Virus record (IMG/VR): IMGVR_UViG_3300047470_000295
Span: 17,962-81,961 of that record
Source of the DNA: a virus
Reading direction: 5' to 3' (one strand)
DNA length: 64,000 nt
The position numbers and the translations under genes are program-made. Below are positions 10,748-60,671 of the stretch, piece by piece. The notes beneath the pieces were generated by a model. The model ran no database searches. It had not been told where the DNA came from and was given only the letters and a program-made list of their open reading frames with translations. The stretch's first letter is position 1. The number at the start of each line of letters is the position of its first letter.

Positions 10748-11308
10748 TTACGAGCTGTGCGCGGCCGGCGGTTCGTCGCTCACGTCCACGTCGTCAGGCA
10801 GACGGTGCAGCTTGCGCTCGGTGCGCCGCCAGGCGAGCAGTGCTTCCTGAATCTCGGCGGGGGTCGCGTCGGGCCGGCCGTGAACCACGATGGTCATGCG
10901 CGCACCGCCCGTGCCGGGGAGTTGGATCACCTGTGAGTCGATGAGGGGGTCGTCGCTCTCCAGCTCGTCGACCACTCGCAGCGGCAGCTTCCGCCGGAGT
11001 ACTTCGTCGGTTCGACGGACGGTCGACGCCGAGGAGCTCTCGGTCACGAGGGTCGGTTCGCCGCCGGTGAGCACGGTCGGGCCGGATCCTGTCGCCCATC
11101 CGAGGTGCGGCTCGATCTTCGCGAGGGTCTGCGGCATCCGGCTACGCGGTTTGCCGCTCTCAAGGTTCTGGACGCTGCCCTCGCTGACGCCTGCAAGTTC
11201 CGCCAGTTGGGGTTGCGTGAGGCCGCGCGCTTCGCGGGCTGTGCGAATTGCGGTAGCGAGCTTCGCCCACTGCAGGTTGGTCCGGTCCTCCGCCATGCGG
11301 CTCATCAT
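10748..11308 (-). CDS. XRE/CI-like repressor candidate
   Basis: HTH is ARGLTQPQLAELAGVSEGSVQNLESG. The C-terminal domain is unknown. The start is one of several ATGs between 11296 and 11332. Confidence 0.75.
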   Translation of the reverse strand: MMSRMAEDRTNLQWAKLATAIRTAREARGLTQPQLAELAGVSEGSVQNLESGKPRSRMPQTLAKIEPHLGWATGSGPTVLTGGEPTLVTESSSASTVRRTDEVLRRKLPLRVVDELESDDPLIDSQVIQLPGTGGARMTIVVHGRPDATPAEIQEALLAWRRTERKLHRLPDDVDVSDEPPAAHSS

Positions 11309-12196: not shown

Positions 12197-12934
12197 TTGC
12201 CTGACATCGTCTCATCCGCCCCCGAAGTCACAGACGACGACCGGTTCTGGATCAAGAATCGCGCCGAGTTTCTCGCCCGGAAGAGCACCGTCGCCGACCC
12301 GAACGCTTGCGGTACCTGCCGCGGCAACGTGGCTGCCGGCGAGCCTGTCGAGCATGAAGGCTGTGCACAGCGCGCCACTCTGCTCCACGCACCGGACCAC
12401 CCGTACTACGAGATCCTCGCCGGCTTCTCCCTGGAGGAGAACGAGAAGCTCCCGCCCCGCTTCCACGTCCCGGTGTTCGACGACTGCGGCATGCCGAACT
12501 CGTGGCTGTGCGCGGTGTGCTGGGAGGAGGGCACGGTCGTCGGCTGGCCGTGCGCCACCGCCACCAAGTACGGCACCCAGGTCTTCACGTCGCTGCATGC
12601 GGCGGAGACGGCGCAGGAGAAGCAGACGGCCGAGTTGGAGTGGCTGAGGGCAGAGAATGCCCGCCTTCGTCTCGCCTGGCAGTCGGCTCGCGAGCGGGCG
12701 CAGTCTCACGGTGAGACCGTCCTCCGGGTCGTCAACGACCGCGAGGCGTACCAGGGCTGGCTGAAGCAGGAGCAGACCTACACCCAGCACCTGCAGGCCC
12801 GCATCGCCGAGCTCTCAGCGGCTGCCCCCGTGCAGCAGCACTACGACAAGGTGCCGGACCCGCTGGACGGATGCCACTGGTGCGCGTGCGGCAACCGCTG
12901 GCCCTGCAAGGACGCCCCGGCGGTGACGGCATGA
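12197..12934 (+). CDS. hypothetical protein with Cys clusters and a coiled coil (245 aa)
   Basis: TTG start follows GAGAAGAGG. Central heptad region (LEWLRAENARLRLAW). Confidence 0.5.
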   Translation: MPDIVSSAPEVTDDDRFWIKNRAEFLARKSTVADPNACGTCRGNVAAGEPVEHEGCAQRATLLHAPDHPYYEILAGFSLEENEKLPPRFHVPVFDDCGMPNSWLCAVCWEEGTVVGWPCATATKYGTQVFTSLHAAETAQEKQTAELEWLRAENARLRLAWQSARERAQSHGETVLRVVNDREAYQGWLKQEQTYTQHLQARIAELSAAAPVQQHYDKVPDPLDGCHWCACGNRWPCKDAPAVTA

Positions 12935-13077
12935 GCGCCTGTGGTTGGAACCCCGTCGATGCCACGACGGACTGCGACTGGGACGCCAACTGCCCAGTGC
13001 ACGGCGCCGAGCCGGACCTGGACACCACGGTCGCCGCGATGGGCGCCCTGCCGATGCCGACGGGAGACGCGTCATGA
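12931..13077 (+). CDS. small hypothetical protein (48 aa)
   Basis: ATGA coupling to the previous stop. Confidence 0.35.
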   Translation: MSACGWNPVDATTDCDWDANCPVHGAEPDLDTTVAAMGALPMPTGDAS

Positions 13078-13385
13078 CCTTCACCCCGAGGGCCTTCCAG
13101 ACCGTGCCTCCGCGTATCGAGCAGGCGGACGTGCCGCTGGCGACGCTGCAGCAGCAGGTCGCCGCGATCGTCACCGGCCAGCGCAACGCGCAGCTCCTCG
13201 CCGAGGCCGCCGACCGCACCGCATCCCCGTCGGACCGCATCGCCTACCAGCTGGACGCCTGGCTGGTCCGGCACCCCAACGCACCGGTCGCGCAGGTCGC
13301 CGACTACCCCGCCTGGGCGGCCGAGATGACCGCCCGCGAGAACGCCAACCGTGAAGCCCGCACCGCCCGCAAGGAGACGCTGTGA
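13074..13385 (+). CDS. hypothetical protein (103 aa)
   Basis: ATGA coupling. Confidence 0.45.
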   Translation: MTFTPRAFQTVPPRIEQADVPLATLQQQVAAIVTGQRNAQLLAEAADRTASPSDRIAYQLDAWLVRHPNAPVAQVADYPAWAAEMTARENANREARTARKETL

Positions 13386-22476: not shown

Positions 22477-22686
22477 CTAGGACTTCGCGGCGGGCGCGAT
22501 CTTCGCGACCCACTCGCGGGTGAAACCGGTGAGCTTCGCCATGTGGGAGGGGCCTTTGCCGCCGGCGCGTCCTTCGACCAGCAGTGCGCGCAGCTCTGCG
22601 TCGGCGTCGTTGAACGCCTTCTCGGCGCGGGTCCGCTTCTTCGCGGCGGCCTGAATCCTCTCGTCCAGCTCGTCCATGTTGCACAT
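22477..22686 (-). CDS. small DNA-binding-like protein (69 aa)
   Basis: Lone minus-strand ORF. SHMAKLTGFTREWVAKI is an HTH-like tail. Confidence 0.45.
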   Translation of the reverse strand: MCNMDELDERIQAAAKKRTRAEKAFNDADAELRALLVEGRAGGKGPSHMAKLTGFTREWVAKIAPAAKS

Positions 22687-22858
22687 AGTGACACGACTTC
22701 GCGTGATCGCGCTACGCGACCGCGACTATCGCTCGCGAATGCCGACCGCGAACGCTATTCTCATATCTGGAGTCGAGAGATCGCAGAACGAGGGCCTCCC
22801 TGAGGCCTGGTTCCGTGCGCCTGAAAACCCTCCAGAACTCTCCGAAGGACACCTACTC
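22687..22858. promoter_or_regulatory. AT-richer divergent spacer with direct repeats (ori- or operator-like)
   Basis: CGACCGCGA at 22717-22725 and again at 22743-22751. CGCG-rich near-palindromes. Confidence 0.35.
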
Positions 22859-23926
22859 ATGGCCCGTGGACACGGTCGGATTCTCACCAGCATCTGGGAG
22901 GACCCCGACTTTCTCGCGCTCGACGAGAGGGAGCAGCGTCTCTACCTGTTCCTCATCTCGCAGCCGAACCTCAACCACGCCGGCCTGCTCGACCTGACGC
23001 TGCGGCGCTGGTCTCGCAAGGCCCGCGGGCTCACTTCTGCCGAACTGGAGAAGCTGCTCCAGCGCCTGGAAGAGGCCCACTTCGTCGTCATGGATGACGA
23101 CACTGAGGAACTCCTCATCCGCTCCTTCGTCCGCAATGACGGCGTCTGGCGCATGCCGAAGGTCATGGGGGCCGCCGTCTCGGGCGCCCTGGAGATCTCC
23201 TCGCCTCGCCTCCAGGCCGCCCTGCTCGCCGAGATGGACCGGATCCCGCTGGACGAACTCAGCGACGAGCCCACCAAGTACAAGGGGCAGGACGGCCCCT
23301 CCATCCGACAGCAAGTCGTCATCCACATCAGCACCCTCCGCAAGGCGTTCGGCACCCCCGACCCCGACCCGTCCCGAAGGGATTCGGGAATCCCCTCCGA
23401 AGCCCCCTCGGGAACCCCCTCCGATACCCCTTCGCAGCCCCCTGCCGAAGGGGGTCCGAAAGGCTCTACGCGCGGGCGCGGGCGCGCGCCACACGCGCAT
23501 TCCCCTGCCCCTGCCCCTACCCCTGCCCCTGCCCCTGCCCCGAACCCCGTGGTGGTTGAGGTGGGGGAGGAGGCCTCAGGTAGTAGCGAGCCGGGCTCCT
23601 CGTCGCCTGACGGCGACGCCCCCATCGACCTCGACGGCTTCGCACTCACCGACTCGATGCGCCGCTGGGCCCTCGACACCTTCGGCCCCGGACTCGACAT
23701 CGACTACGAGACCGCACAGTTCGTCGACCACTTCCGCGCCCAGAACGTCCGCCGCCCCAACTGGCCCGCCGAATGGCAGAAGTGGATCCGCCGCTCCGCC
23801 AAGTACGCATCCGAGCGCGCCAACCGCCCGCAGCTGCGCTCCGTCGCAGGCACCGGGTCCCGCGCCGACACCCACACCGCCGACGACTACACGAACTCGA
23901 AAGTCGAGGACCTGTTCGCATCATGA
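22859..23926 (+). CDS. putative replisome organiser / replication initiator
   Basis: N-terminal ILTSIWEDPDFLALDEREQRLYLFLISQPNLNHAGLL wHTH-like module, a Pro/Ala linker (PAPAPTPAPAPAP), and position ahead of the loader and helicase genes. Confidence 0.5.
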   Translation: MARGHGRILTSIWEDPDFLALDEREQRLYLFLISQPNLNHAGLLDLTLRRWSRKARGLTSAELEKLLQRLEEAHFVVMDDDTEELLIRSFVRNDGVWRMPKVMGAAVSGALEISSPRLQAALLAEMDRIPLDELSDEPTKYKGQDGPSIRQQVVIHISTLRKAFGTPDPDPSRRDSGIPSEAPSGTPSDTPSQPPAEGGPKGSTRGRGRAPHAHSPAPAPTPAPAPAPNPVVVEVGEEASGSSEPGSSSPDGDAPIDLDGFALTDSMRRWALDTFGPGLDIDYETAQFVDHFRAQNVRRPNWPAEWQKWIRRSAKYASERANRPQLRSVAGTGSRADTHTADDYTNSKVEDLFAS

Positions 23927-24504
23927 CCACCACCGAGCACGACGCCTGGCGGGCCGAGGCCCGAGCCGAAGCCGTCGCCAACCGCCTCCAGACCTTCCTC
24001 GACCGCCGGCCCGCCGCCTTCAACGAGCCCGGCACCCTGCGGCGCGATGTCCACGCCTGGATGGACGGCTACCTCGACGGCCGCCACGGATCGCTCATCC
24101 TCACCGGCGAGATCGGCACCACGAAGACGTGGCACCTGTGGAAGCTCAACGAGACCCTCATCCGCCGCGGCTGGCGCGGTCTGTTCCGCATCGCCACCAC
24201 CTACGACGTCAAGGTCGCCACCGACCGGCCCGTCGACCACGAGGCCCTCACCAGGTGGCGCGAGGCCGACCTGTACGCCATCGACGACCTCGGCGCCCGC
24301 GCCGTCAACGACTGGACGGCCGACGCCATCAGCGAGCTCATCGACAGCCGCTGGCAGAACCGCCGGCCGACGGTCATCGCCACGAACCTGACCACCGCCG
24401 AACTCCGCAACGTCCTCGGCGACCGCGCCGCCTCCCGCATCGGTGACGGCGCCACCGTGGCCCGCTTCACCGGAGACGACCGCAGGAAAGGCGGCACTCA
24501 GTGA
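23923..24504 (+). CDS. DnaC/IstB-like helicase loader ATPase
   Basis: ATGA coupling. Walker A-like LTGEIGTTKT, Walker B LYAIDDLG, and RWQNRRPTVIATN. Confidence 0.7.
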   Translation: MTTTEHDAWRAEARAEAVANRLQTFLDRRPAAFNEPGTLRRDVHAWMDGYLDGRHGSLILTGEIGTTKTWHLWKLNETLIRRGWRGLFRIATTYDVKVATDRPVDHEALTRWREADLYAIDDLGARAVNDWTADAISELIDSRWQNRRPTVIATNLTTAELRNVLGDRAASRIGDGATVARFTGDDRRKGGTQ

Positions 24505-25859
24505 CCCACGACGACTTCGAGGCCGAGCAGCGCGACACGCTCCCCCCGCACGACCTGGACGCCGAGATGGCCACCCTCGCCGCGATGCTCCTGTCGCGTG
24601 ACGCGATCGCCGACGTCACCGAGATCATCAAGAACCCGGCCGACTTCTACCGGCCCGCCCACCAGACGATCTTCAGCGCGATCGTGGCCCGCTACCTCGA
24701 CGGCACGCCCGTCGACCCGATCGTCCTCGCCGACGACCTCGCCAAGACCGGCGACGTCACCCGAGTCGGCGGCGCCGCCTACCTGCACCACCTCGTCCAG
24801 CAGGTCCCGAGCGCTTCCACCGGCGAGTACTACGCCGGGATCGTCCGCGAGAAGGCCGTCCTGCGGAACCTCCAGTCGGCGTGCAACCGCACCCTCCACG
24901 TCATCGCCGACGGCACCGCCGAGACCGGCGAACTCCTCGACGACCTGCGCGCCGAAGTCGACGGCATCGTCGACGACACCGCCCACGGCGACGAGGACAC
25001 CCTCATCGGCGCCGACGGCGAAGACTTCCTGGAGCAGCTGGAGCACCTGCAGAAGAACGGGCCGGCCCGCGGCGTGAAGACCGGGTTCACGGACTTCGAC
25101 ACCCTCACCAACGGCCTGCAGCCCGGCCAGCTCATCGTCATCGCGGCCCGGCCCGCGATCGGCAAGTCGACACTCGGCACCGACATCGTCCGCCACGCGA
25201 CGATCGTCGAAGGCCTCCCGGCGGTGTTCTTCAGCCTGGAGATGTCCCGCACCGAACTGAAGATGAAGATCGCCTCCGCTCAGGCCCGCGTCGCCCTGCA
25301 CCACCTGCAGAGCCAGAACGGCATGACCGACGACGACTGGACGCGCCTCGCCAAGGCCTGGCCGATGATCAACGCGGCGCCCCTCGACATCGTCGACGAC
25401 GCCGGCCTGACCCTGACGAAGATCCGCTCGCACTGCCGCCGCATCAAGCGCAAGCGGGACCTGCGCCTCGTCGTCATCGACTACCTCCAGCTCATGGAGG
25501 GCGAGATGACCGGCCGCAGCGAGAACCGTCAGCAGGAAGTCGCGAAGATCAGCCGCAGCCTGAAGAAGCTCGCCGCCGAACTCCAGGTCCCCGTGATCGC
25601 CATGTCGCAGCTCAACCGCGGCGCCGAACAGCGCACCGACAAGAAGCCCCTGCTGTCCGACCTGCGCGAGTCCGGAGCGATCGAGCAGGACGCCAACATG
25701 GTGATCCTTCTGCACCGCGAGGACGCATACGACCGCGAAAGCCCCCGCGCCGGCGAGGCCGACTTCATCGTCGCCAAGAACCGCGGCGGCCCCACCGCGA
25801 CGATCACGACCGCGTTCCAGGGCCACTACAGCCGCTTCGTCGACATGGCGCAGACATGA
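24501..25859 (+). CDS. dnaB: replicative DNA helicase DnaB
   Basis: 452 aa. N-terminal LPPHDLDAEMATLAAMLL, Walker A AARPAIGKST, and the SQLNR motif. Confidence 0.95.
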   Translation: MTHDDFEAEQRDTLPPHDLDAEMATLAAMLLSRDAIADVTEIIKNPADFYRPAHQTIFSAIVARYLDGTPVDPIVLADDLAKTGDVTRVGGAAYLHHLVQQVPSASTGEYYAGIVREKAVLRNLQSACNRTLHVIADGTAETGELLDDLRAEVDGIVDDTAHGDEDTLIGADGEDFLEQLEHLQKNGPARGVKTGFTDFDTLTNGLQPGQLIVIAARPAIGKSTLGTDIVRHATIVEGLPAVFFSLEMSRTELKMKIASAQARVALHHLQSQNGMTDDDWTRLAKAWPMINAAPLDIVDDAGLTLTKIRSHCRRIKRKRDLRLVVIDYLQLMEGEMTGRSENRQQEVAKISRSLKKLAAELQVPVIAMSQLNRGAEQRTDKKPLLSDLRESGAIEQDANMVILLHREDAYDRESPRAGEADFIVAKNRGGPTATITTAFQGHYSRFVDMAQT

Positions 25860-32207: not shown

Positions 32208-32369
32208 CTACTCCTCTGGGGGCGTCGGCTTCTCGTTGAGCGGCAGGCCGAGAGCCGTGTTGATCGCCTGCCGCCGCTTCGAGACCTCGCCAGGCTTGCG
32301 CGGCGGCACGGTCCGCTCCGCTCGAATCGCTGCGAACGAGGGCGGTTCCAATTCATCCTCAGGGGCCAT
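32208..32369 (-). CDS. possible small ORF (53 aa)
   Basis: ATG ORF below the ORF-track cutoff, downstream of the island terminator. Weak call. Confidence 0.2.
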   Translation of the reverse strand: MAPEDELEPPSFAAIRAERTVPPRKPGEVSKRRQAINTALGLPLNEKPTPPEE

Positions 32370-32410
32370 GCCGGAACAACGGCTCCCACCAGCTGGCAGT
32401 CACGCAGATG

Positions 32411-32435
32411 CCCCGTCCGGGTGGCCCGGACGGGG
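32411..32435 (-). terminator. 11-bp stem hairpin after the 223-aa gene
   Basis: CCCCGTCCGGG-tgg-CCCGGACGGGG, 13 nt beyond the stop codon. Confidence 0.6.
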
Positions 32436-32448
32436 CGTTGCTTCGGAC

Positions 32449-33120
32449 CTAGGCCTTCTCGGTGGTGCGGTGCTGCGAGATGAAATAGTCGACCGTCGCC
32501 GGGTCTCTCCGCATTGCGGCCAGCAGCTGCTTCTTTCGGAACTGCTCCCGGCCAGTCTCCAGGATCTTTTCGTAGCCGTCGCGGGCTTGAACGATCCGCT
32601 CGACGGCCAGGAATTCGATGACGTCTTCCAGGCATGGGCGGAACCGTTTGCCGCCGACCGGGAAGTGAAGCGCCGCGAGGGAGCGGCCCGTGTCCGTCTT
32701 CGGGTCGTTCAGTGACTCGAAGAACCCTGACGACGCCTCGACTTGCAGGTGGGCGTCCGGGTAGCCGTCAGCCTTGTCCCGCTCGTAGTCGTAGTGGAAC
32801 AGGCCGTGCTTGGCGTCCTTCGACCCGAACACGCCGACGAACGACTTGTGGACCATGAGATGTTCGCGCTCGATGTCGAGGCGTAGCTGGAAGCTGACGT
32901 CCATCCATAGCTCAACCTTCGGCGCCCGCGGCTTCAACTGAAAGCGTTCCGCTGTCAGTAACCGTTTATCGAGCAGGTGTCCAAGCATGAAAAGGCGGTC
33001 GTCACCCACCTGGAGTGCGACCGCCTTTATTTGCACGTGACTGGCGATGGTGCCGTTCAGGAGAGCCTGGATCTCCTTGGTGAATCTGATCGTCTGATTG
33101 AGGAGCTTGTCAGAGATCAA
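32449..33120 (-). CDS. unknown protein (223 aa from TTG 33120, or 179 aa from ATG 32988)
   Basis: Long clean ORF, visibly AT-richer than its surroundings. No family recognised. Contains FHYDYERDKADGYPDAHLQVE. Confidence 0.6.
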   Translation of the reverse strand: MISDKLLNQTIRFTKEIQALLNGTIASHVQIKAVALQVGDDRLFMLGHLLDKRLLTAERFQLKPRAPKVELWMDVSFQLRLDIEREHLMVHKSFVGVFGSKDAKHGLFHYDYERDKADGYPDAHLQVEASSGFFESLNDPKTDTGRSLAALHFPVGGKRFRPCLEDVIEFLAVERIVQARDGYEKILETGREQFRKKQLLAAMRRDPATVDYFISQHRTTEKA

Positions 33121-33319
33121 GTGCGCCGCCGATGGACACCCACAGTGATTGCGCCTGGGCCGAGGTGAACTCCCGCCGGCGGGCCATGTCGCGTAGCTGC
33201 GCGTAGGTCAGGCCGAGCCGGTCGAGGGCCGCGTAAGCAGCCTCCCGGAACTCTTCCTGCGTGACTTCGGTGATGACGTCGTCGTCGTGGTCAGCGTGTC
33301 GCTGTTCCTGAATGGTCAT
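33110..33319 (-). CDS. small acidic protein (69 aa) overlapping the start of the next gene
   Basis: ATG at 33319. Its 3' end overlaps the downstream ORF by 11 nt. Confidence 0.5.
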   Translation of the reverse strand: MTIQEQRHADHDDDVITEVTQEEFREAAYAALDRLGLTYAQLRDMARRREFTSAQAQSLWVSIGGALDL

Positions 33320-33383
33320 CCGAATCGCCCCTACCCCCCAGTAGCTTCTCGATGACAGTAGTGTCCCCCAAGGGTCTGACACT

Positions 33384-33397
33384 GTGACCCGGGTCAC
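33384..33397. promoter_or_regulatory. 14-bp perfect palindrome
   Basis: GTGACCCGGGTCAC, about 65 nt upstream of the 69-aa ORF. Confidence 0.35.
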
Positions 33398-33556
33398 CAC
33401 CCGGTGTCCAGCCAAACGACACCACTGTCGAATTCTTCCCACTTGCGCGTGATCTGTACGCCCGCAGTTGCCGTCATGTACGGATCCTGACTAGCCAGCG
33501 TTCGAGCATGACGACGCCCCCGCCCCGGTGAACCAGGACGAGGGCGCAGCGCACCG

Positions 33557-33880
33557 TCAGAACTGACCCGTGCAGGCGAGGCAGACCCGCGACGACTCCC
33601 ACGCTGCTCGCTGCTGCTCCGCGTAGGCCGTCGCCTTGTAGACGAGTGCACCCCAGCCCAGACCGCCGGCCGCGATCAGCAGGCCGAGGAGGACGGCGCC
33701 GTTCGCGGCGGCCACGATGCCGACCACCAGCGCACCCAGCGCCCCGAGCGCGCCACCCTTCGCCGCGGCGGGCGGCGCGTACTTCGCCTTCAAATCCGAG
33801 TCCGACGGCAACGACCGCCAATAGTGCGGAAGATCAGCCACGTTCGGCGACCCGCACTTCGGCGACGGACACACGATCAT
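33557..33880 (-). CDS. split zinc-ribbon, glycine-zipper two-TM mini-protein (107 aa)
   Basis: CPSPKC at the N-terminus, CLAC at the C-terminus. Central GGALGALGALVVGIVAAANGAVLLGLLIAAGGLGWGALV. Confidence 0.55.
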   Translation of the reverse strand: MIVCPSPKCGSPNVADLPHYWRSLPSDSDLKAKYAPPAAAKGGALGALGALVVGIVAAANGAVLLGLLIAAGGLGWGALVYKATAYAEQQRAAWESSRVCLACTGQF

Positions 33881-34082
33881 GCTCAACCCCCAGTCGACAC
33901 AGCCCTGTTCGCCGACAGTCCGGCCGCAGCTTGGGCGCCACAAGGCCTACCGACCGGTGTGTGAGCGGGGCCACAACCCAAACGCCGCGAGCGCCCCACC
34001 TGCATCAGGCGAGACGCTCGCGTAGCGAAACGACTACAGAACAGCCAGGTCAGACGACTGGCCTTAAGGCGCGCCCCTTCGC

Positions 34083-34577
34083 CTAGTCGTTCTGGTGTCG
34101 CAGCGCCCGGCTGATCGTTGACTGCTCGACGTCGAGCAGCCGCGCCACGGCGGACTGGCTGCCGACGATGTCGACCATCTTCTGCAGCTCGCGCGCCCGC
34201 GTTCCGGCGTAAGCGAGGACTTCGGCCTGCGCCTTGTCCATCGCCGCCGTGCAGCGCTGGACGTCGACCATCGCGTTGTAGAACCGTCGGTGCTGGTCGG
34301 CCGGCACCTTCGCCCACACGGCCTCTTCGATCCGGATCCGCTCCATGCGCTTGCGCACCAGGCGCGTCATTTCCGGGTTGTCGTCGATGCGGGCGAGGGG
34401 GCCATCCACCTCGCCCGAGGCGATGAGTGCGGGGTCCCACTCGAAGCTGTCGGGCTTCTCCAGGATCTCGAAGTCTTCGAGCAGCAAGGCGCCGCCACTG
34501 CCCGGCGTGCTGGGCTCGACGACGATGTAGGTGGTGCCGCTCTCGCTGCGGTATCGCTCGCCGATCTCGCTGAACAT
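34083..34577 (-). CDS. protein with C-terminal HTH (164 aa)
   Basis: ATG at 34577 follows ACGGGGG. C-terminal GSQSAVARLLDVEQSTISRALR. N-terminal domain is unknown. Confidence 0.55.
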   Translation of the reverse strand: MFSEIGERYRSESGTTYIVVEPSTPGSGGALLLEDFEILEKPDSFEWDPALIASGEVDGPLARIDDNPEMTRLVRKRMERIRIEEAVWAKVPADQHRRFYNAMVDVQRCTAAMDKAQAEVLAYAGTRARELQKMVDIVGSQSAVARLLDVEQSTISRALRHQND

Positions 34578-34615
34578 GACGCCCCCGTTGGTCCGTGGTG
34601 CTCCGACGCCAGTAA

Positions 34616-34658
34616 CTATGCACCCCTGCATAGACCTTGTCAATGCAGGGGTGCATAG
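34616..34658. promoter_or_regulatory. perfect 16-bp inverted repeat (terminator and/or operator)
   Basis: CTATGCACCCCTGCAT-11 nt-ATGCAGGGGTGCATAG. Confidence 0.5.
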
Positions 34659-34669
34659 AGTCGAAAGAG

Positions 34670-34987
34670 CTACAGCGTCGCCAGGTCAGAGACCCGGTAC
34701 GGCGCGGGCAGTGGAGGCATCGGCACACCCAGCGCGTTACCCAGCAGGGCGCGGGCCACACAGTCCCGCTCCAGGGCCGGCTGGCCAGGTCGCATCGCCA
34801 GCAGCAGCCGGCCAGCCTCCTGGTGCGCGTACCCGGTGAAGCCGCGTTCCGTGATCGACGACTCCACCAGCTCCACGTCCAGGTCGGCCAGCAGCTGGGG
34901 GAGCGGGGTGTCGAGCAGGTCGGCTGTCGTGACGGACGCCGCACGCTTTGGGACGGGACGCTCGGGGGTGCAGGTTGCTACAGTCAT
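34670..34987 (-). CDS. hypothetical protein (105 aa)
   Basis: ATG at 34987 follows GTGAGGA. Confidence 0.5.
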   Translation of the reverse strand: MTVATCTPERPVPKRAASVTTADLLDTPLPQLLADLDVELVESSITERGFTGYAHQEAGRLLLAMRPGQPALERDCVARALLGNALGVPMPPLPAPYRVSDLATL

Positions 34988-35268
34988 GGACGTAGTCCTC
35001 ACTTTGACGAGGCGGATTACAGACTGGCGAGTGGCAACTCGCTGGTTGAACTGGCCCGGTGTTAGCGCACCGGGCCGTTCGCGTTTCTGGTCACAGCCTG
35101 CCGCATGACTCAACGGCGGCATCTTCATCGAGCAACGCATCCAGGGATGCGCTGGGGTGGGGTTGACCTGCGTAAAGGCCGAGGTCAATGCGCGCGCGCA
35201 AGTAAGTCGATCGAGTGAACACGTGAATTGACGCCTCTGTGTAGGCCCTACGAACGGCTGAAACTCGA

Positions 35269-35694
35269 TCAGTGCGGCAGCGCGTCGTCGAGGTACTCCT
35301 GCACCGGTCCGAAAAGCCCGTAGGGCACGTAGTCGGCGATCTCCGCGTGCGTGATCCAGGCGACCGCGTCGAGCTCCTCGTCGTCTGCGACTCGGGCCTC
35401 GCCGCCGACCAGGCGGACCGCGACGTAGTGCATCGGCACCTTCGACTTCGGGTGCACCCGGTCGCCGAGCACCTTCACCGACTCGACCTTCAGGCCGGTC
35501 TCCTCGTCGACCTCGCGGACCGCGGCCTGCTCCGGTGACTCGCCGGCCTCGATCGCGCCGCCCGGGAACACCCAGGAGATCTCACCCTCGGCGGCCCTGC
35601 GGCGCGCCATGAGCACCTTGCCCTGGTCGACGATGATCGCGACCGACACCGGCGGCTTCTCGATCTTCTGCTCGGCAGTCGTCTCGGTCGTCAT
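35269..35694 (-). CDS. Nudix hydrolase (141 aa)
   Basis: Perfect Nudix box GAIEAGESPEQAAVREVDEETGL. ATGA coupling to the upstream gene. Confidence 0.85.
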   Translation of the reverse strand: MTTETTAEQKIEKPPVSVAIIVDQGKVLMARRRAAEGEISWVFPGGAIEAGESPEQAAVREVDEETGLKVESVKVLGDRVHPKSKVPMHYVAVRLVGGEARVADDEELDAVAWITHAEIADYVPYGLFGPVQEYLDDALPH

Positions 35695-36389
35695 ACGGTG
35701 GCCTCCAAGGCTTCCAGGATCGGCGGATAGATGCGGTCGCGGGGGATGTAGCGGGACAGCTCCTCTATCGGAGCCCAAGCCACGTCGGCGTTCTCGGAAG
35801 CGTCCCCGTTCACCGCTTCGCCTCGCACGTAGTCGCAGATGAAGTAGTCGCAGTAAGCGCGCGTAACCGGATGAAGCCGTTCACCCAAGTGCTCGCGGAC
35901 CATGCAGTGCACGCCCGTCTCGTCCAGGGTTTCCCTGACAGCGACCTTCGGAGCGGACCCGCCCGGCTTCACGATCCCCGCCGGGAACTGCCACGTCATG
36001 TCGTCGCCGTCCTGCCTGCACACGAGGAGGACATCACCGTCGCGGCGCACGACCGCAATGGCCACCCGCAGCGCCTGCGCCTGCATCTGCTGAGCGTGGG
36101 CGCGCACGTAGTGGATGAACAGCCTGCGCACCGCATCACCTGCCTTTCCGTTGTAGGCCGCGTTGAGAATCCGGCGCGTTTCCAACTTCGGGACCATGTC
36201 GGGCGCCTGATGCCAGGCGGCGACCGTCCGGACCGACACTCCGAGGCGCGCAGCGAACTCTTCCTGCGTGTCCTCGAAGGCGTCCTGGAGCCAGCAAGCG
36301 TGCCGGCCGGTCCACTGGGTGACGTCCACTATCGGCTCCCTGGCCGCTTCCGTGGGGGTGGTTGCGGCGAACCTGCAGAGTGCCTGCAC
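35691..36389 (-). CDS. XRE-HTH / Nudix-fold fusion protein (232 aa, start uncertain)
   Basis: N-terminal QEEFAARLGVSVRTVAAWHQ HTH. C-terminal Nudix fold with a degenerate box GIVKPGGSAPKVAVRETLDETGV. Confidence 0.8.
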   Translation of the reverse strand: MQALCRFAATTPTEAAREPIVDVTQWTGRHACWLQDAFEDTQEEFAARLGVSVRTVAAWHQAPDMVPKLETRRILNAAYNGKAGDAVRRLFIHYVRAHAQQMQAQALRVAIAVVRRDGDVLLVCRQDGDDMTWQFPAGIVKPGGSAPKVAVRETLDETGVHCMVREHLGERLHPVTRAYCDYFICDYVRGEAVNGDASENADVAWAPIEELSRYIPRDRIYPPILEALEATV

Positions 36390-36476
36390 GCCCGCTGCAT
36401 GATCACTGCATGCTGCTGCAGAGGGACTTCATGGCCTGAGGTCGCGCGTGCGCGTTGACTCGACCACATGGATAAG

Positions 36477-36731
36477 TCACTCGCCTTTGCCGAACTGGAA
36501 AGCGCGCTGGTACGAGACGCCTCCCATGATTTCCCCGATCTCTTTCCACGTCTTCTTCTCGTCCTTCAGCCCCAGGGCGATCTCCTGGCGCTGCCGCCGA
36601 CGGAAGAGCTCCAGTTCCTCGTCGAGGTGCTTGGCCAGTTCGATGAAGGCGGCCCATCGCTCGGTGAGGTTCTCGACCGCGCGCAGGTGTTCGTCGAAGG
36701 GTGCGAAAGGAGCGTCGTGGGAGTCGGCCAT
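36477..36731 (-). CDS. small HTH-like regulator (84 aa)
   Basis: First gene of the leftward island. C-terminal KTWKEIGEIMGGVSYQRAFQF. Confidence 0.5.
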   Translation of the reverse strand: MADSHDAPFAPFDEHLRAVENLTERWAAFIELAKHLDEELELFRRRQRQEIALGLKDEKKTWKEIGEIMGGVSYQRAFQFGKGE

Positions 36732-36761
36732 GACGTGAGAGTACGGGCGATCCGACGCTCA

Positions 36762-36854
36762 CTCAAGATGCGTCTTGAGAAGTTCAGTTGGGAGCTTGAC
36801 TCGCCTCGACTGGCCCTCTACGGTCGTACCAAGTCCTCAAGGCGCCACCTTGAG
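36762..36854. promoter_or_regulatory. two copies of a CTCAAG/CTTGAG inverted repeat in a divergent spacer
   Basis: CTCAAGA-tgcg-TCTTGAG at 36762-36779 and CTCAAGG-cgcca-CCTTGAG at 36836-36854. Confidence 0.45.
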
Positions 36855-36988
36855 AACGGCATCGCCGTCCACTCTCACCGGACCTGGTCCGCGGACGGCA
36901 GCGCCCCACAAATGAAGACGGGCCGGACACCGCGACTCTCACCTCGCAGGCCGGCCCTCACCACGAGGAATCTCTGAAGGGTCCCCTC

Positions 36989-37435
36989 ATGGCTACGCAG
37001 ATCGTACAGAACCGTGCGGGCGCAGCGCGCCCCACCTCCCCGCTTCCCATGGCGGCGGCGCAGGCGATGCACCGCATCGAGTACGCCCTGGCCGCCCCGC
37101 AGCGCGAGCTGGCCGCCAAGGTCGGCGCCGCGCTCGGCTTCCGGGGCGGATGTCAGCCCCGCGAGGACCTCGGCGAGACGGCGACCCGCCACATCGTCTG
37201 GTCGCAGGTCGAGCTGAACGACGTCTTCGAGCGGGTCGGCGGCACCGTCACCGCCCGCCGGGTGGAGCGTCGCACCTCCGACAGCTCGTCCACCTGGACA
37301 GCCACCGAGCTCACCCTCACCGTGAACCTGCCGGACATCGGCGCCGTCCAGGTCGCCACCGACCTGGAAGAGGAGTCGGAGGTCTACCCCACGGACCTGC
37401 CCGTCGTCCGTGCCGCCCGCGCGGTGACGGCATGA
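36989..37435 (+). CDS. hypothetical protein (148 aa), first gene of the transfer block
   Basis: ATG ORF with ordinary composition. Confidence 0.5.
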   Translation: MATQIVQNRAGAARPTSPLPMAAAQAMHRIEYALAAPQRELAAKVGAALGFRGGCQPREDLGETATRHIVWSQVELNDVFERVGGTVTARRVERRTSDSSSTWTATELTLTVNLPDIGAVQVATDLEEESEVYPTDLPVVRAARAVTA

Positions 37436-40560: not shown

Positions 40561-42666
40561 ATGGCCACCCCGCTGACCGACGAGCGTGCCCCGCTGACCC
40601 TCGTCAAGGACACCCCCGAGACGGTCGACCCGGCCGCGGCGTGGGTCGTGGAGAAGCGGCCCCGCCCCGCCTGGATGATGTCCGGGCAGCAGCTGCGGCA
40701 GTGGGCTGTCTACGCCCGCGACAACGCGCTCGACTTCGCCACCCACCACGCCACCCACTCGCCCTACTACCTCGGCTGGTCGGTGCGCGGCTACCGCCGG
40801 CTCTGCCTCCGCTGGTGGCAGGCCCGGCACGACGACTACCGGCAGCAGATCGCCACCGCCAAGCTCATGCTCCGCCAGGCCAAGGAGATGCCGCGAGGCA
40901 CCGCGCGTGCCGCCGAAGAGTCGAAGGCCCGCGCCCTGCTCGAAGTTCGGCGCACCGAGTTCAAGGCGCACAAGCGGCGCCACTGGATCCGCACCGGCAT
41001 CAGCGGACTGCTCGTCGTCGGTGGCGCGTCCGCCGTCGCAGCCCTCGGCAGCTGGTGGATGCAGCTCCTCCTCGTCCTCGCCGTCGTGTTCGCCGGCGCC
41101 TACCACGGCCGACCCGAAGAGCGGGCTGTCGCCGCTGCGCAGGCGCCGACCCGGACGTCGCACCTGGGGGAGGAGACCATGCGGCGCGTCCTCGTCGAGG
41201 CCGGCGTCGTCCCCGAGAAGCGGGCCGCCGAGATCCGCGGCGTCGGCCTGCCCCACACGGAGGGCCCTGGCATCGCCTTCGCCGTCGACCTGCCGTCCGG
41301 CATGCCGGCCACGATCGCGCTCGCCAAGAAGAAGGAGATCGCCTCAGCTCTCGCCGTCCACAGCGACTGGCTCGACCTCGGCGTGGGCCGCGGCGCAGGC
41401 AGCAGCGAATCCCGGCTGGAGATCTGGGTCTCCCGGGAAGACCCCTTCGCCAGCGCCCACGTCTCCCCGCTCATCGGACACAAGGGCAAGCTCGACCTGT
41501 GGAACGACGGCGCCCCGCTCGCCTTCGGGAAGCGCGGGAACACCGTCCTTGTCCGCGTGCGCGACACGATGATGCTCGTCGGCGGCGCCACCCGCCGCGG
41601 AAAAGGCGTCTTCCTCGCCAACCTCAACCTCGGCGCATGCAAGGACGTGCGGGTCAACCTGCGGCTCTTCGACGGCAAGGCCTCCGGTGAGCACAACGCC
41701 TTCTCTGGGCTGCTCTCCACGTTCGTCAAGAAGAACCCCGAGCGGCTCACCCTGTTCCTGCGGGCCGTCCTTGAAGACCTCGACCGGCGCAGCGACTTCC
41801 TCGACGAGCGCGGCAAGGCCAAGCTGACCGAAGACCTGATCGAGGAGATCGGCGGCATCGAGCTCATCGACATCGACGAGTTGGCCACCTACACGGCCAA
41901 GGGCACCAGCCCCTACGTCGACGAGATCGTCGAGAGCCTCGCCCAGATCGGTGCCGTCGGTGCCGGTCTCGGGGTCCTCCTTGTCGCAGCAACGCAGGTC
42001 CCGGAAGTCGACGTCGTCCGCGGCCGGCTCCGCCAGAACCTGATCTCCCGCGCCGCCATGAACACCGAGTCGCCCAACGCCTCCAACACGATCCTCGGCG
42101 ACGGCATGGCCGGTCAGGGCTACGACGCGTCGGTGATCCCGCTCGATCAGCCCGGTCGGTTCTGGTTCAAGTCGCCCGACCTCGGCACGGTGTCGCTTCG
42201 CTCGTTCTTCATCGACGACGACGACAAGGCGCCGATCATCGCCGATGCCTACGAACTCCGGAAGGCCGCGGGCCGGCTTCCCGGACAGTGGCACGACCCG
42301 ATCGAGGAGAAGCTCGCCGCCTGGACCGGCGTCTCCTCGGCCGCCGGCGGGGAGCGCGGCAACGGCCGGATCGTCCGCGTCACCCTGCTGGAGCGGCTGG
42401 AGATCCTTGCCAAGCAGACAGGCCGCGGCAACGTCACGAACGCCGAGGTGTTCGCCGCACTCGCCACCACCGATCCGGCCAAGTACGGACAGCAGGACGG
42501 CGAAACGGGCCACGGCTGGTCGATCCGCGTCGGCAAGATCCTGAAGGACGAACTCGACCGCCTCGGCGTCGACATCGAGGCAAAGAAGGTCGCCGGCCCG
42601 GACGGGCAACGGACGTCGGGCTACCTGCTCGCAGACGTCACTGCCGCCCGAAATGTCCGCAACTGA
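40561..42666 (+). CDS. FtsK/SpoIIIE-family DNA translocase, TraB-like
   Basis: 701 aa. Two N-terminal TM helices, Walker A-like GGATRRGKG, Walker B-like ELIDIDELA, and a C-terminal helical (wHTH-like) tail. Confidence 0.85.
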   Translation: MATPLTDERAPLTLVKDTPETVDPAAAWVVEKRPRPAWMMSGQQLRQWAVYARDNALDFATHHATHSPYYLGWSVRGYRRLCLRWWQARHDDYRQQIATAKLMLRQAKEMPRGTARAAEESKARALLEVRRTEFKAHKRRHWIRTGISGLLVVGGASAVAALGSWWMQLLLVLAVVFAGAYHGRPEERAVAAAQAPTRTSHLGEETMRRVLVEAGVVPEKRAAEIRGVGLPHTEGPGIAFAVDLPSGMPATIALAKKKEIASALAVHSDWLDLGVGRGAGSSESRLEIWVSREDPFASAHVSPLIGHKGKLDLWNDGAPLAFGKRGNTVLVRVRDTMMLVGGATRRGKGVFLANLNLGACKDVRVNLRLFDGKASGEHNAFSGLLSTFVKKNPERLTLFLRAVLEDLDRRSDFLDERGKAKLTEDLIEEIGGIELIDIDELATYTAKGTSPYVDEIVESLAQIGAVGAGLGVLLVAATQVPEVDVVRGRLRQNLISRAAMNTESPNASNTILGDGMAGQGYDASVIPLDQPGRFWFKSPDLGTVSLRSFFIDDDDKAPIIADAYELRKAAGRLPGQWHDPIEEKLAAWTGVSSAAGGERGNGRIVRVTLLERLEILAKQTGRGNVTNAEVFAALATTDPAKYGQQDGETGHGWSIRVGKILKDELDRLGVDIEAKKVAGPDGQRTSGYLLADVTAARNVRN

Positions 42667-60670: not shown

Positions 60671-60671
60671 C

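Follow-up and report, generated by a model that had tools for sequence, protein, structure and literature searches.

In a tailed temperate Streptomyces prophage, a leftward block of genes lies between two rightward runs, and we lean towards reading it as a composite of a conserved control core and a swappable cargo slot that carries an autonomous module encoding proteins of 69 and 223 amino acids. The evidence comes from the anatomy of the block, its pattern of conservation among related prophages, its modularity and the absence of matches to known families. The window referred to below is the whole stretch of DNA analyzed (64,000 nucleotides).

Layout of the leftward block

The element was recognized as a prophage from genes for an integrase, an XRE repressor, terminase and portal; genes for a PDDEXK nuclease, methylases, DnaB and a replication initiator were also identified. 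From gene calling by third-position GC, plus-strand genes run unbroken from 11771 to 32150 as an early operon of about 20 kb, with the exceptions of a small minus-strand ORF (22477-22686) and one doubtful overlapping minus-strand ORF. Rightward genes restart at 36989 in a block that includes an FtsK/TraB-like gene. Between the two runs, eight well-supported genes extend leftward from 36731 down to 32449 (Table 1), and the same eight were called independently on the near-identical metagenomic contig L002 (98–100% protein identity). The initial annotation counted eight or nine genes here. The ninth, a 53-aa ORF, is doubtful: it was uncalled on L002, is without a homologue in the related loci and matched no family in Pfam, PADLOC, PHROG or NCBIfam. 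The AT-richer stretch that had been noted was also found, with GC dropping to 0.60–0.65 over 32.4–33.4 kb versus about 0.70 in the surroundings. The block is indeed opposed to the flanking operons of a temperate element, as had been described; its orientation and host-type promoters do not prove that it is expressed in the lysogen.

Table 1. Features of the leftward block and of the adjoining control region, in window coordinates.
Feature	Position	Strand	Description
Doubtful 53-aa ORF	32208-32369	-	Beyond terminator hairpin; GC3 0.81, coding-like
Terminator-like hairpin closing the block	32410-32436	-	Perfect 12-bp GC-rich stem, 3-nt loop
Cargo 3b, 223 aa	32449-33120	-	Unannotated family; putative effector or toxin
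Cargo 3a, 69 aa	33110-33319	-	Acidic partner; gene overlaps cargo 3b gene by 11 nt
Upstream region of gene pair	33320-33510	-	Inverted repeat AGTGTC-N12-GACACT at 33360-33383; G-rich ribosome-binding site
Cargo 2, 107 aa	33557-33880	-	Glycine-zipper two-TM hairpin flanked by the halves of a split Cys4 zinc-ribbon (CPSPKC ... CLAC)
Terminator-like hairpin 3' of cargo 1	33986-34022		dG -35.8 kcal/mol, z = -5.1
Cargo 1, 164 aa	34083-34577	-	Unknown N-terminal domain and C-terminal Cro/YdaS-like HTH
Near-perfect palindrome, 43 bp	34616-34658	-	Between core and cargo; 20-nt arms, 95% complementary
Core gene 4, ~100 aa	34670-34987 (pipeline call); 34670-35188 (GC calling)	-	Conserved ~80-aa domain from LLDTPLPQLL
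Core gene 3, 141 aa	35269-35694	-	Stand-alone canonical Nudix hydrolase; Pfam NUDIX E=1.1e-24
Core gene 2	35691-36389	-	XRE-type HTH::Nudix fusion; Pfam NUDIX E=1.4e-15; weak HTH_3 match
Core gene 1, 84 aa	36477-36731	-	N-terminal helical part and C-terminal HTH-like segment TWKEIGEIMGGVSYQRAFQF; GC3 0.85
Conserved divergent control region	36732-36988	.	Between core gene 1 and rightward block
Putative leftward promoter	-35 TTGAGT 36766-36761; -10 TACTCT 36743-36738	-	17-nt spacer; assigned by sequence reading
Putative rightward promoter	-35 TTGACT 36796-36801; -10 TACGGT 36819-36824	+	17-nt spacer; assigned by sequence reading
Inverted repeats of control region	36762-36779; 36836-36854		CTCAAG-N6-CTTGAG; CTCAAG-N7-CTTGAG
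Structured rightward leader	36855-36988		Leader hairpins

Conserved core and variable cargo

The initial annotation treated the block as one island under one regulator. In its full form, this explanation holds that the whole 4.5 kb is a single lysogeny-expressed immunity or defence cassette, with its own regulator and swappable as a unit. It is consistent with the shared orientation of all of the genes against the flanking operons, with a small HTH-like gene at the start and a strong hairpin at the end, and with a lower GC at both ends of the block. However, comparison with related loci makes it improbable. Twelve distinct loci with a Nudix core were compared (L004, L007, L008, L010, L014, L017, L019, L020, L021, L028, L029 and L030), and both Nudix genes are present in all twelve. 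The HTH::Nudix fusion is the best-conserved segment, at 75–88% identity in most of these prophages and 58% in L030, versus 26–69% or undetectable identity for the flanking phage genes. Since the first four genes are conserved among relatives, with both Nudix genes in each and better conserved than their neighbors, they are not accessory; from these comparisons, the four-gene core appears to be a fixed feature of a Streptomyces prophage family. Variation is confined to the downstream part, where the gene content differs in nearly every related locus. The suggestion of a swappable cassette is therefore borne out for the 3' part of the block and not for its first four genes. The notion of a single unit is further opposed by three strong hairpins (z-scores of -4.2 to -6.5), two of them internal, and at least one internal consensus promoter, which together yield at least three or four units, and by the 69+223 gene pair, which moves autonomously with a conserved upstream region of its own.

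Core genes

Core gene 1 has homologues at 50–80% identity in L007, L010, L017, L019/L020, L021 and L028 by tblastn or blastp, and an analogous small protein of L004 shares its C-terminal pattern. There was no match in Pfam, NCBIfam, PHROG or the PDB. Core gene 1 may encode a small repressor of the divergent promoters.

The two Nudix genes that had been recognized earlier both have firm Pfam matches, and they are translationally coupled by a 4-nt overlap. Core gene 2 encodes 212 aa from an ATG at 36329 or 232 aa from a GTG at 36389, and its family has 1123 matches, nearly all from Streptomyces, some sources naming members "XRE family/YiaG". In its Nudix box (GIVKPGGSAPKVAVRETLDETG), which is invariant in five relatives, a glycine replaces the first glutamate and RE..DE is kept. 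Because the key catalytic residues are kept, this Nudix domain may act enzymatically instead of serving as a sensor. Core gene 3 has a perfect Nudix box (GAIEAGESPEQAAVREVDEETG) and matches PHROG 1198 (MutT/NUDIX, E=1.1e-22) and the PADLOC family PDC-S07 (E=2.4e-20). The latter, a generic Nudix candidate family, was all that PADLOC recognized when the block was checked for defence systems. The NCBIfam matches of core gene 3 were all under their cut-offs, and no Nudix substrate can be assigned because every NCBIfam equivalog score was far below its cut-off.

A role for the Nudix pair as a metabolic or counter-defence enzyme module acting during infection, as opposed to one in regulation or immunity, is unlikely overall. 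Such a module might hydrolyze host immune-signalling nucleotides or NAD/ADP-ribose derivatives, sanitize nucleotides or decap RNA. The catalytic RE..(D/E)E residues in both domains point this way, as do the best PDB sequence matches (Ap4A hydrolase, CTP pyrophosphohydrolase, MutT and RppH), the match to PDC-S07, the frequency of Nudix genes in phages (PHROG 1198) and the Acb5 anti-CBASS domain that related prophages encode in their early operon. Nevertheless, the genes point away from both sets of operons, early and late, an XRE-type HTH is fused to one of the two, and they are located at a conserved divergent promoter/operator region. A regulator therefore fits better than an enzyme of the infection stage.

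Core gene 4 is found in most related islands at 38–52% identity. It has 23 homologues, all from Streptomyces and none with a Pfam domain. The AF2 model has a pLDDT of 83; a Foldseek search returned nothing significant, with zincin-type CapP and PrpR among the low-ranking matches (E>1). The protein may be a degenerate ImmA/IrrE-like alpha/beta module that lacks HEXXH.

Divergent control region

The region between core gene 1 and the rightward block has a mean column identity of 77% across seven diverged prophages, and the -35/-10 blocks and the inverted-repeat half-sites are invariant in that alignment. A simple sigma-70 scan flagged neither of the promoters assigned there by reading. Since the ATG is only 6 nt downstream of the -10 element, the leftward mRNA is probably leaderless. 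In L017, a compensatory half-site pair (CTCAAA/TTTGAG) is present, and the leader hairpins show compensatory changes in 9 of 35 pairs.

Across this region, the core faces a block with an FtsK-like protein that has homologues on 45 Streptomyces plasmids and none among 50,697 phage genomes. Its Pfam match is marginal (25.1 bits versus a cut-off of 24) and its Walker A motif is non-canonical (GGATRRGKG). One relative encodes an HTH_SpdB_C protein in the same rightward block. The large protein at the FtsK-like position shows no detectable homology in L019 and L021, which leaves the idea of a transfer block invariably opposite the core a weak one.

Cargo slot

The interval from 34658 to 32410 is a cargo (moron) slot that holds three independent units here and is bounded by strong hairpins. 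At its upstream boundary, the palindrome between core and cargo folds as RNA with a dG of -33.7 kcal/mol (z = -6.5) and likely terminates the core operon. The DNA itself contains the only consensus sigma-70-like promoter of the block (TTGACA-17-CATAGT, 34643 to 34615); with this promoter embedded in it, the palindrome is a probable operator for the next gene, cargo 1. The HTH of the cargo 1 protein, one of the further HTH-type proteins listed at the outset, is weak but present (Pfam YdaS_toxin, an HTH family, E=3e-4; PHROG 35 repressor, E=7e-5). Cargo 1 is missing from every related locus except L002 and has no tblastn match in phage genomes.

The description of cargo 2 as a glycine-zipper membrane mini-protein is upheld by its hydrophobic core, which is rich in glycine and reaches Kyte-Doolittle values of 2.26. 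Homologues with 43–54% identity occur as cargo in L021, L028 and L030 and not in the other relatives; no family match was obtained in Pfam, PADLOC, PHROG or NCBIfam. The strong hairpin reported at the end of the block is likewise real, with a dG of -30.8 kcal/mol and a z-score of -4.2, and 0 of 200 shuffles folded as well.

Phage morons, as described by Hendrix and colleagues, are cargo inserted among conserved phage genes and bring a promoter and a terminator of their own. From 34658 downstream, the units resemble them in that they differ between otherwise syntenic relatives and are bounded by strong hairpins, with a consensus promoter for at least one unit and a lower GC in the last. Unlike morons, the slot adjoins a conserved regulatory operon at its 3' end and is not in the late-gene region.

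The 69+223-aa gene pair

The last unit agrees with the earlier suggestion of a module of unrecognized type. Neither protein matched a family in Pfam, NCBIfam, PHROG or PADLOC. For the 223-aa protein, searches by sequence in the PDB and by fold in the PDB and BFVD (E<0.02) gave no match, and ten distant relatives had no Pfam match either. Its AF2 model is confident (pLDDT = 88, pTM = 0.85), and the family comprises 277 homologues and about 976 representative clusters at 50% identity (E<=1e-3). The invariant residues are H109, D111, E113, R114, K116, Y120, H124, Q126, H152, P154, G156, G157, R159, R161, P162, E165, D166 and E169.

In every locus examined, a homologous small gene is immediately upstream of the gene for the 223-aa family. 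The overlap is 11 nt in 16 of 17 loci, including those of 51–53% GC, and is kept down to 29% identity; the exception is L017, with 53 nt as called (12427-12654 versus 12602-13339). In a Mycobacterium abscessus prophage, where the pair adjoins the integrase, a 9-nt gap replaces the overlap. Upstream, TGTCAG...ACACT is invariant in 10 of 10 aligned loci, including relatives at 44–47% protein identity that lie in unrelated contexts.

The pair is linked to mobile elements and to a defence island. In other prophages it closes reverse-strand islands, whether or not the Nudix core is present; it is patchily distributed among close relatives and has a GC below that of the phage. One copy has a complete Lamassu system (LmuA 1e-94, LmuB 2e-143, LmuC 2e-44) at a distance of 468 bp, in a region that also has AriA/OLD-like, PDC-S28, GajB-like and AbiJ-like genes; the guilt by association draws on a handful of loci.

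We read the pair as a putative unit of toxin-antitoxin-like or abortive-infection type, from a new protein family, in which the 69-aa protein is a putative antitoxin or regulator. Type II toxin-antitoxin and prophage abortive-infection pairs similarly have a small gene first that overlaps a larger one, an operator-like inverted repeat upstream, and autonomous movement among prophages and defence islands. In contrast to such pairs, neither protein here can be placed in a described toxin, antitoxin or defence family, and the confidently predicted 223-aa fold is without a counterpart in the PDB or BFVD. This dissimilarity also suits a possible, if rather doubtful, alternative in which an enzyme and a small chaperone or regulatory partner serve phage or host housekeeping or lysogenic conversion. 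The invariant His, Asp, Glu, Arg and Lys set is enzyme-like, and the L006 copy stands alone, its neighbors being genes for sugar transport and haem, and the 20 kb inspected there had no mobile-element markers. The strict bicistronic order with its retained overlap, the invariant operator-like repeat, the recurrence at prophage island ends, next to an integrase and in the company of Lamassu and further defence genes, and the patchy distribution all argue instead for the toxin-antitoxin-like reading.

Relation to known systems and proposed working

The core Nudix genes appear to echo Pif, the conjugal-immunity factor of pSAM2 (PMC2440964). Together with the repressor KorSA, this Nudix protein holds pSAM2 in a quiescent state and confers conjugal immunity (PMC2440964), and xre-nud-mdp clusters occur in actinomycete integrative conjugative elements (PMC2440964, PMC3218068). 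As in those systems, Nudix genes and an HTH regulator are found here on an integrated Streptomyces mobile element with an FtsK/TraB-type gene, and the arrangement suggests control of that block. In contrast, the present element is a tailed prophage, with genes for terminase and portal, and the likeness drawn here is one of gene arrangement. It has two Nudix genes, of which one is joined to an XRE-type HTH; a GntR KorSA homologue is absent from the window (L020 has one in its cargo slot), as is any HD phosphohydrolase.

One-component regulators that combine an HTH with a Nudix domain and sense ADP-ribose are established (NrtR; PMC9503650). Like NrtR, core gene 2 places a Nudix and a DNA-binding domain in one polypeptide, with palindromic candidate operators nearby. 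NrtR has a C-terminal winged HTH, whereas the HTH of core gene 2 is N-terminal and XRE-type, so that both domain order and HTH type differ. A further difference is that the Nudix box of core gene 2 keeps the main catalytic residues, and its ligand and DNA binding are putative.

The cargo units are read as independent. The HTH protein would be autoregulated via the palindrome that holds its own promoter, the zinc-ribbon/two-TM mini-protein is a candidate for exclusion or a membrane effector, and the 69+223 pair would form an autonomous bicistronic module with its own operator-like repeat and terminator. The core would be transcribed from a host-type promoter, back-to-back with that of the FtsK/TraB-like block. 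One or both of the DNA-binding core proteins may bind the CTCAAG-N6/7-CTTGAG repeats, which would repress the rightward block and autoregulate the core. The Nudix domain of the fusion may sense a nucleoside-diphosphate-X signal that the stand-alone Nudix protein would hydrolyze. By analogy, the core may serve these Streptomyces prophages as a kor/Pif-like regulatory or immunity node.

The prophage and the leftward gene block

The leftward block sits within a tailed temperate prophage. Gene calling in the window (GC 68.5%) by third-position GC, together with domain scans, identified the genes listed in the table along with a small terminase gene. In addition to a replication initiator and DnaB, the early operon encodes a DUF3799/PD-(D/E)XK nuclease, a LuxR/GerE regulator and both types of DNA methyltransferase, N6/N4 and C5 (19304-20107 and 26047-27642, both on the + strand). 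It is broken into by a lone leftward ORF of 69 aa (22477-22686, GC3 0.90). An identity as a plasmid or as an actinomycete integrative conjugative element (AICE) was dropped given the presence of terminase and portal genes. When 30-40 kb were searched by megablast, neither GenBank phages nor PLSDB plasmids gave a DNA-level match. No sequenced phage has a portal more than 43% identical to this one, and no tRNA genes were found in the window.

The block itself is arranged as the initial annotation had described. Eight leftward genes run from 36731 to 32449 with coding-type GC3 values of 0.78-0.95, rightward genes restart at 36989, and an independent pipeline recovered the same eight on a metagenomic contig that is nearly identical (98-100% at the protein level). 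Chance ORFs were rejected as an explanation on the basis of these GC3 values and the homologues. A possible ninth gene, a 53-aa ORF at 32208-32369, lies 3' of the terminator, was not called on the near-identical contig and is not conserved; it was rejected as part of the system. Two Nudix domains were verified with Pfam, the C-terminal HTH of the 164-aa protein is present as a weak match, and the glycine-rich mini-protein has two transmembrane (TM) segments with CPxxKC and CxxC on either side. The GC content falls to 0.60-0.65 across the last two genes, and the hairpin that closes the block has a perfect 12-bp stem.

Features of the prophage and of the leftward block (promoters and hairpins are predicted)
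Feature	Coordinates	Strand	Basis or detail
Tyrosine integrase	9106-10398	-	domain scan
XRE-type repressor	10748-11308	-	domain scan
Early operon	11771-32150	+	third-position GC gene calls
Replication initiator	22676-23926	+	early operon; domain scan
DnaB	24501-25859	+	early operon; domain scan
Hairpin 3' of 223-aa gene	32410-32436	-	dG -30.8 kcal/mol, z -4.2
Hairpin 3' of 164-aa gene	33986-34022	-	dG -35.8 kcal/mol, z -5.1
Hairpin 3' of ~100-aa gene	34616-34658	-	dG -33.7 kcal/mol, z -6.5
Divergent control region	36732-36988		257 bp
Leftward promoter	36766-36738	-	-35 TTGAGT 36766-36761, 17-nt spacer, -10 TACTCT 36743-36738
Inverted repeat CTCAAG-N6-CTTGAG	36762-36779		overlaps leftward -35
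Rightward promoter	36796-36824	+	-35 TTGACT 36796-36801, 17-nt spacer, -10 TACGGT 36819-36824
Inverted repeat CTCAAG-N7-CTTGAG	36836-36854		just 3' of rightward -10
Rightward leader	36855-36988	+	5' leader of gene 36989-37435
FtsK/SpoIIIE-like protein	40561-42666	+	rightward block facing the core
Large terminase	60633-62303		domain scan
Portal	62300-63763		domain scan

A conserved core and an exchangeable cargo slot

Scans of genome contigs and metagenomes with the HTH::Nudix fusion protein produced one or two loci only; genomic context was therefore sampled from contigs encoding homologues and from IMG/VR. To gather related loci, both the HTH::Nudix and the 223-aa protein were used alongside IMG/VR; comparison was by tblastn and blastp and by our own gene calls. 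The Nudix pair is kept in 12 of 12 distinct related loci (L004, L007, L008, L010, L014, L017, L019, L020, L021, L028, L029 and L030), L020 being a near-duplicate of L019, and in most of these the 84-aa and ~100-aa genes lie beside it. Identity to the window copy is 75-88% for the HTH::Nudix protein in most of the 12 loci (58% in L030) and 59-89% for the canonical Nudix protein. The flanking phage proteins are 26-69% identical or undetectable, with the FtsK-like protein at 40% in L007. Since the Nudix proteins are better conserved than the phage proteins around them, the first half of the block is not accessory; the proposed accessory island in fact begins with the best-conserved stretch of the region. 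The HTH::Nudix family as a whole has 1123 matches, almost all of them in Streptomyces. One of the loci deserves a separate comment: DATHKR010000338.1, listed in GTDB as part of a 'Kofleriaceae bacterium' MAG, is apparently the same ~90.3 kb sequence as an IMG/VR viral contig and a JGI metagenome contig (L007 compared with L009, L012 and L016). Since this Streptomyces-type prophage is part of it, at 68.6% GC, the Kofleriaceae label is probably a binning error.

The region 3' of the ~100-aa gene presents a different picture. The notion of a swappable cassette holds for this part, where gene content varies by phage, but not for the invariably present Nudix pair. Among L004, L007, L008, L010, L017, L019/L020, L021 and L028-L030 the cargo is either replaced or present in some and absent in others. 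The slot is empty in L008; holds a class-I aminoacyl-tRNA-synthetase-like protein, an ASCH protein and the 69+223 pair in L004; DUF6083 and a divergent 75+245 version of the pair in L017; a GntR regulator, an antirepressor (ANT) and an HTH protein in L019 and L020; a 190-aa protein with two small genes (86 and 101 aa) convergent to it in L010; a homologue of the TM mini-protein in L021; and combinations of the TM protein and the 69+223 pair in L028, L029 and L030. The gene for the 164-aa HTH protein was found in this phage only among the loci compared. In L004 (8097-9562), the synthetase-like protein is 369 aa long with the motifs HLGT and KLSKS, and its gene is translationally coupled to that of the ASCH-domain protein; the two could form an RNA- or tRNA-directed module. 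A different prophage, L025 (4076-8681), has an analogous reverse-strand island that lacks Nudix genes and carries GntR/UTRA regulators, two T5orf172 proteins, a homologue of the ~100-aa core protein and, as its last unit, a 69+226 pair. From this arrangement, the ~100-aa gene and the pair appear to move independently of the Nudix genes.

The ~100-aa protein belongs to a small family that is restricted to Streptomyces and has no Pfam domain. Its predicted model is confident (pLDDT 83), and a Foldseek search with it identified nothing significant, with CapP and PrpR at E > 1. The protein was considered as a degenerate ImmA/IrrE (M78) peptidase. A likeness to the amino-terminal portion of ImmA/IrrE is unsupported because the HEXXH motif is absent from an alignment of 24 family members and, with the Foldseek result not significant, this assignment was dropped.

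Predicted transcription units and the divergent control region

The leftward strand is divided by three strong hairpins. The one that follows the ~100-aa gene is a 43-bp palindrome that holds the only consensus σ70-like promoter predicted in the block (TTGACA-17-CATAGT), followed by a ribosome-binding site rich in G and by the ATG that starts the 164-aa HTH gene. Read from the sequence, the arrangement is that of a terminator combined with a promoter under autoregulation. Given the hairpins and this terminator/promoter palindrome, the cargo behaves as a set of classical morons: promoters and terminators of its own are predicted from the palindrome promoter, the hairpins and the conserved region upstream of the pair, and its genes are present, absent or replaced among otherwise syntenic relatives.

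At its other end, the block is separated from the rightward genes by a divergent control region with 77% column-by-column identity across seven diverged prophages. From the sequence and its invariant blocks we infer two back-to-back promoters, whose hexamers failed the criteria of a simple scan. The predicted leftward -10 is followed by the ATG after only 6 nt, so the mRNA is probably leaderless. Each promoter is accompanied by an inverted repeat with CTCAAG/CTTGAG half-sites. The spacers of these repeats differ between loci, and in L017 the half-sites co-vary to CTCAAA/TTTGAG; the repeats look like candidate operators of a dimeric HTH protein. A k-mer search comparing the integrase-proximal immunity region with the intergenic regions of the block produced no convincing common operator motif.

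The rightward leader is strongly conserved and is predicted to form three hairpins. Two of the hairpin loops present the repeat ACTCYYAC, with ACTCTCAC occurring twice in the window and ACTCCTAC twice in most relatives, while the third hairpin spans the ribosome-binding site and start codon. Compensatory changes occur in 9 of 35 predicted pairs. The leader, which has no Rfam match, may serve as a regulatory element at the RNA level or as paired binding sites for protein. The sole Rfam match over 31.5-37.5 kb was a meaningless one of a miRNA model to the palindrome.

The Nudix proteins in comparison with Pif and NrtR

The 141-aa protein has a perfect Nudix box, GX5EX7REUXEEXGU. The fusion is matched by Pfam NUDIX (E = 1.4e-15) and weakly by HTH_3 at its amino terminus, and its homologues are named 'XRE family/YiaG' in source annotations. 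Its box, GX5GX7RETLDETG, is invariant among five relatives; the first Glu of the canonical motif is replaced by Gly and another Glu by Asp, while RE..DE is kept. The NCBIfam equivalog scores of the Nudix proteins are all far under the cut-offs, so no substrate can be assigned. A search of the defence models of PADLOC-DB 2.0 matched no validated system; the two Nudix proteins did match PDC-S07, an unvalidated candidate family, with a weak mad1 HTH match besides. None of the remaining seven proteins of the block matched anything. The HTH::Nudix, FtsK-like and 164-aa proteins were unmatched by tblastn against phage genomes, and the fusion found generic Nudix matches only (26-45% identity) in the same kind of search against plasmids.

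In the integrative element pSAM2, the Nudix protein Pif and the KorSA repressor hold the element quiescent and block redundant transfer (PMC2440964, PMC3218068). Pif activity requires an intact Nudix box (PMC2440964), a feature shared by the 141-aa protein of this phage. Most AICEs have a Nudix gene, often within an xre-nud-mdp cluster, and although Pif conjugal immunity for pSAM2 has been known since 2003, its mechanism and signal are unknown (PMC2440964, PMC3218068). A second comparison is with one-component regulators of the NrtR type, which combine HTH and Nudix domains and sense ADP-ribose (PMC9503650). Like these, the fusion joins a Nudix and a DNA-binding domain within one polypeptide. 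In an NrtR-type sensor the catalytic motif is usually degenerate; in the fusion, the first Glu is lost and RE..DE is kept. NrtR-type regulators bind palindromic operators near the genes that they regulate, for which the conserved CTCAAG-N6/7-CTTGAG repeats are candidate counterparts.

The rightward block facing the core encodes an FtsK/SpoIIIE-like protein (Pfam FtsK_SpoIIIE, 25.1 bits against a cut-off of 24; PHROG 1358, 1.6e-32) with a non-canonical Walker A motif, GGATRRGKG. Its homologues are found on 45 Streptomyces plasmids (33-46% identity), and tblastn found none in 50,697 phage genomes. A plasmid-type translocase within a tailed prophage is unusual. The large proteins at this position in L019 and L021 have no detectable homology to it. 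In one relative, an HTH_SpdB_C protein is encoded in the same rightward block.

Taken with the Pif/KorSA and NrtR literature, the FtsK-like and SpdB-type neighbors favor a view of the core as a kor/pif-like control node. In such a node, the rightward block would be repressed and the core autoregulated through the inverted repeats; a nucleotide ligand would modulate repression, and the stand-alone Nudix protein would remove that ligand. A more far-reaching proposal is that a family of tailed Streptomyces prophages captured mycelial transfer genes of the plasmid/AICE type (TraB-like and Spd-like), that a nucleotide-signal switch controls these genes, with the XRE::Nudix protein sensing and the stand-alone Nudix protein erasing an NDP-X signal, and that the 69+223 pair is a toxin-antitoxin or abortive-infection system with a new fold. 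The signal would report whether neighboring hyphae already carry the element. In its entirety this proposal is considered unlikely.

The 69+223-aa pair

The last two genes of the block encode proteins of 69 and 223 aa. A word-indexed search identified 277 homologues of the larger protein, and an exhaustive profile search placed its family at 976 representative clusters with E ≤ 1e-3 (clusters at 50% identity), 732 of them with E ≤ 1e-10. Almost throughout, the members are stand-alone proteins of about 220 aa. The initial annotation had raised the possibility of a module of unrecognised type, and the searches bear this out: neither protein of the pair was matched by Pfam, NCBIfam, PHROG or PADLOC, ten distant relatives of the 223-aa protein were likewise unmatched in Pfam, and a PDB sequence/profile search with the family alignment was empty. 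The AlphaFold model of the 223-aa protein (pLDDT 88, pTM 0.85) combines a six-stranded antiparallel sheet with a helix at the N terminus and further helices at the C terminus. In Foldseek searches of the PDB and BFVD no match fell below E = 0.02, and TM-scores reached at most 0.27. The invariant residues (H109, D111, E113, R114, K116, Y120, H124, Q126, H152, PxGG, R159, R161, P162 and E165-D166) look like an active site on the sheet of the predicted model.

The organization of the pair is highly constrained. The small partner is homologous throughout the family, including a Mycobacterium abscessus prophage and the divergent pair of L017, and its gene lies ahead of the large gene in 17 of 17 loci. 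In 16 of these the genes overlap by 11 nt, even at loci of 51-53% GC and 29% identity; the overlap in L017 is 53 nt as called, and in M. abscessus the two genes are instead separated by 9 nt. Approximately 75 nt upstream of the pair are conserved in every context examined, and within 10 of 10 loci the inverted repeat AGTGTC-N12-GACACT is invariant, making it a candidate autoregulatory operator. As a compact bicistron with a strictly co-inherited small partner, the pair resembles a type II toxin-antitoxin system; it differs in that neither protein is in a recognised family.

The contexts of the pair are diverse. It lies at the 3' end of reverse-strand prophage islands both with the Nudix core (the window, L004 and L028-L030) and without it (L025, L026 and L027), beside the integrase in Mycobacterium phage prophi102-2, in a mobile-element-like region of Actinacidiphila, and alone among metabolic genes in L006. 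In a Streptomyces chromosome (CP098608.1; L005, 3944-20198), a 69+214-aa pair is located 468 bp from LmuA in a defence island that comprises a complete Lamassu system (LmuA, LmuC, LmuB), an AriA/OLD-type ATPase, PDC-S28, a GajB-like helicase and an AbiJ-like protein. The prophi102-2 pair (genes 78 and 77; L001, 1636-2580) is distant, with 35% and about 31% identity. Its two genes carry hypothetical annotations, face away from the lysis genes and adjoin a tyrosine integrase. In M. abscessus prophages, an integrase-adjacent position is typical of defence or lysogenic-conversion genes.

Such features mark the pair as an autonomous bicistron that moves horizontally, resembles toxin-antitoxin or abortive-infection modules and is built from new proteins. 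Taken on its own, the claim that the pair is a toxin-antitoxin or abortive-infection system with a new fold is put forward tentatively, as a possibility to be taken seriously.

Significance

The observations behind the initial annotation have been confirmed and its interpretation is partly supported. A defensible description has two parts, a conserved Nudix/HTH control core and, 3' of it, a moron slot in which one module is toxin-antitoxin-like and of unrecognised type. We infer that the block may be expressed in the lysogen and may serve immunity and defence. The known kinds that it echoes are Pif-like control, phage morons and toxin-antitoxin-like pairs.

Two leads are worth following, the Nudix switch and the 69+223 family. 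The family is large, has a confident yet unmatched predicted fold, and turns up repeatedly in prophages and next to defence genes, Lamassu among them, which makes the pair a candidate for a new actinobacterial toxin-antitoxin or anti-phage system. The comparative map also marks a cargo hotspot as a source of additional candidate genes for lysogenic conversion or defence. With two Nudix genes, one of them HTH-fused, next to a conserved promoter/operator region in which candidate binding sites are clear, the locus is a compact test system for Nudix control of a Streptomyces mobile element. If true, the nucleotide-signal switch would amount to a prophage counterpart of Pif immunity, which has long lacked an explanation.
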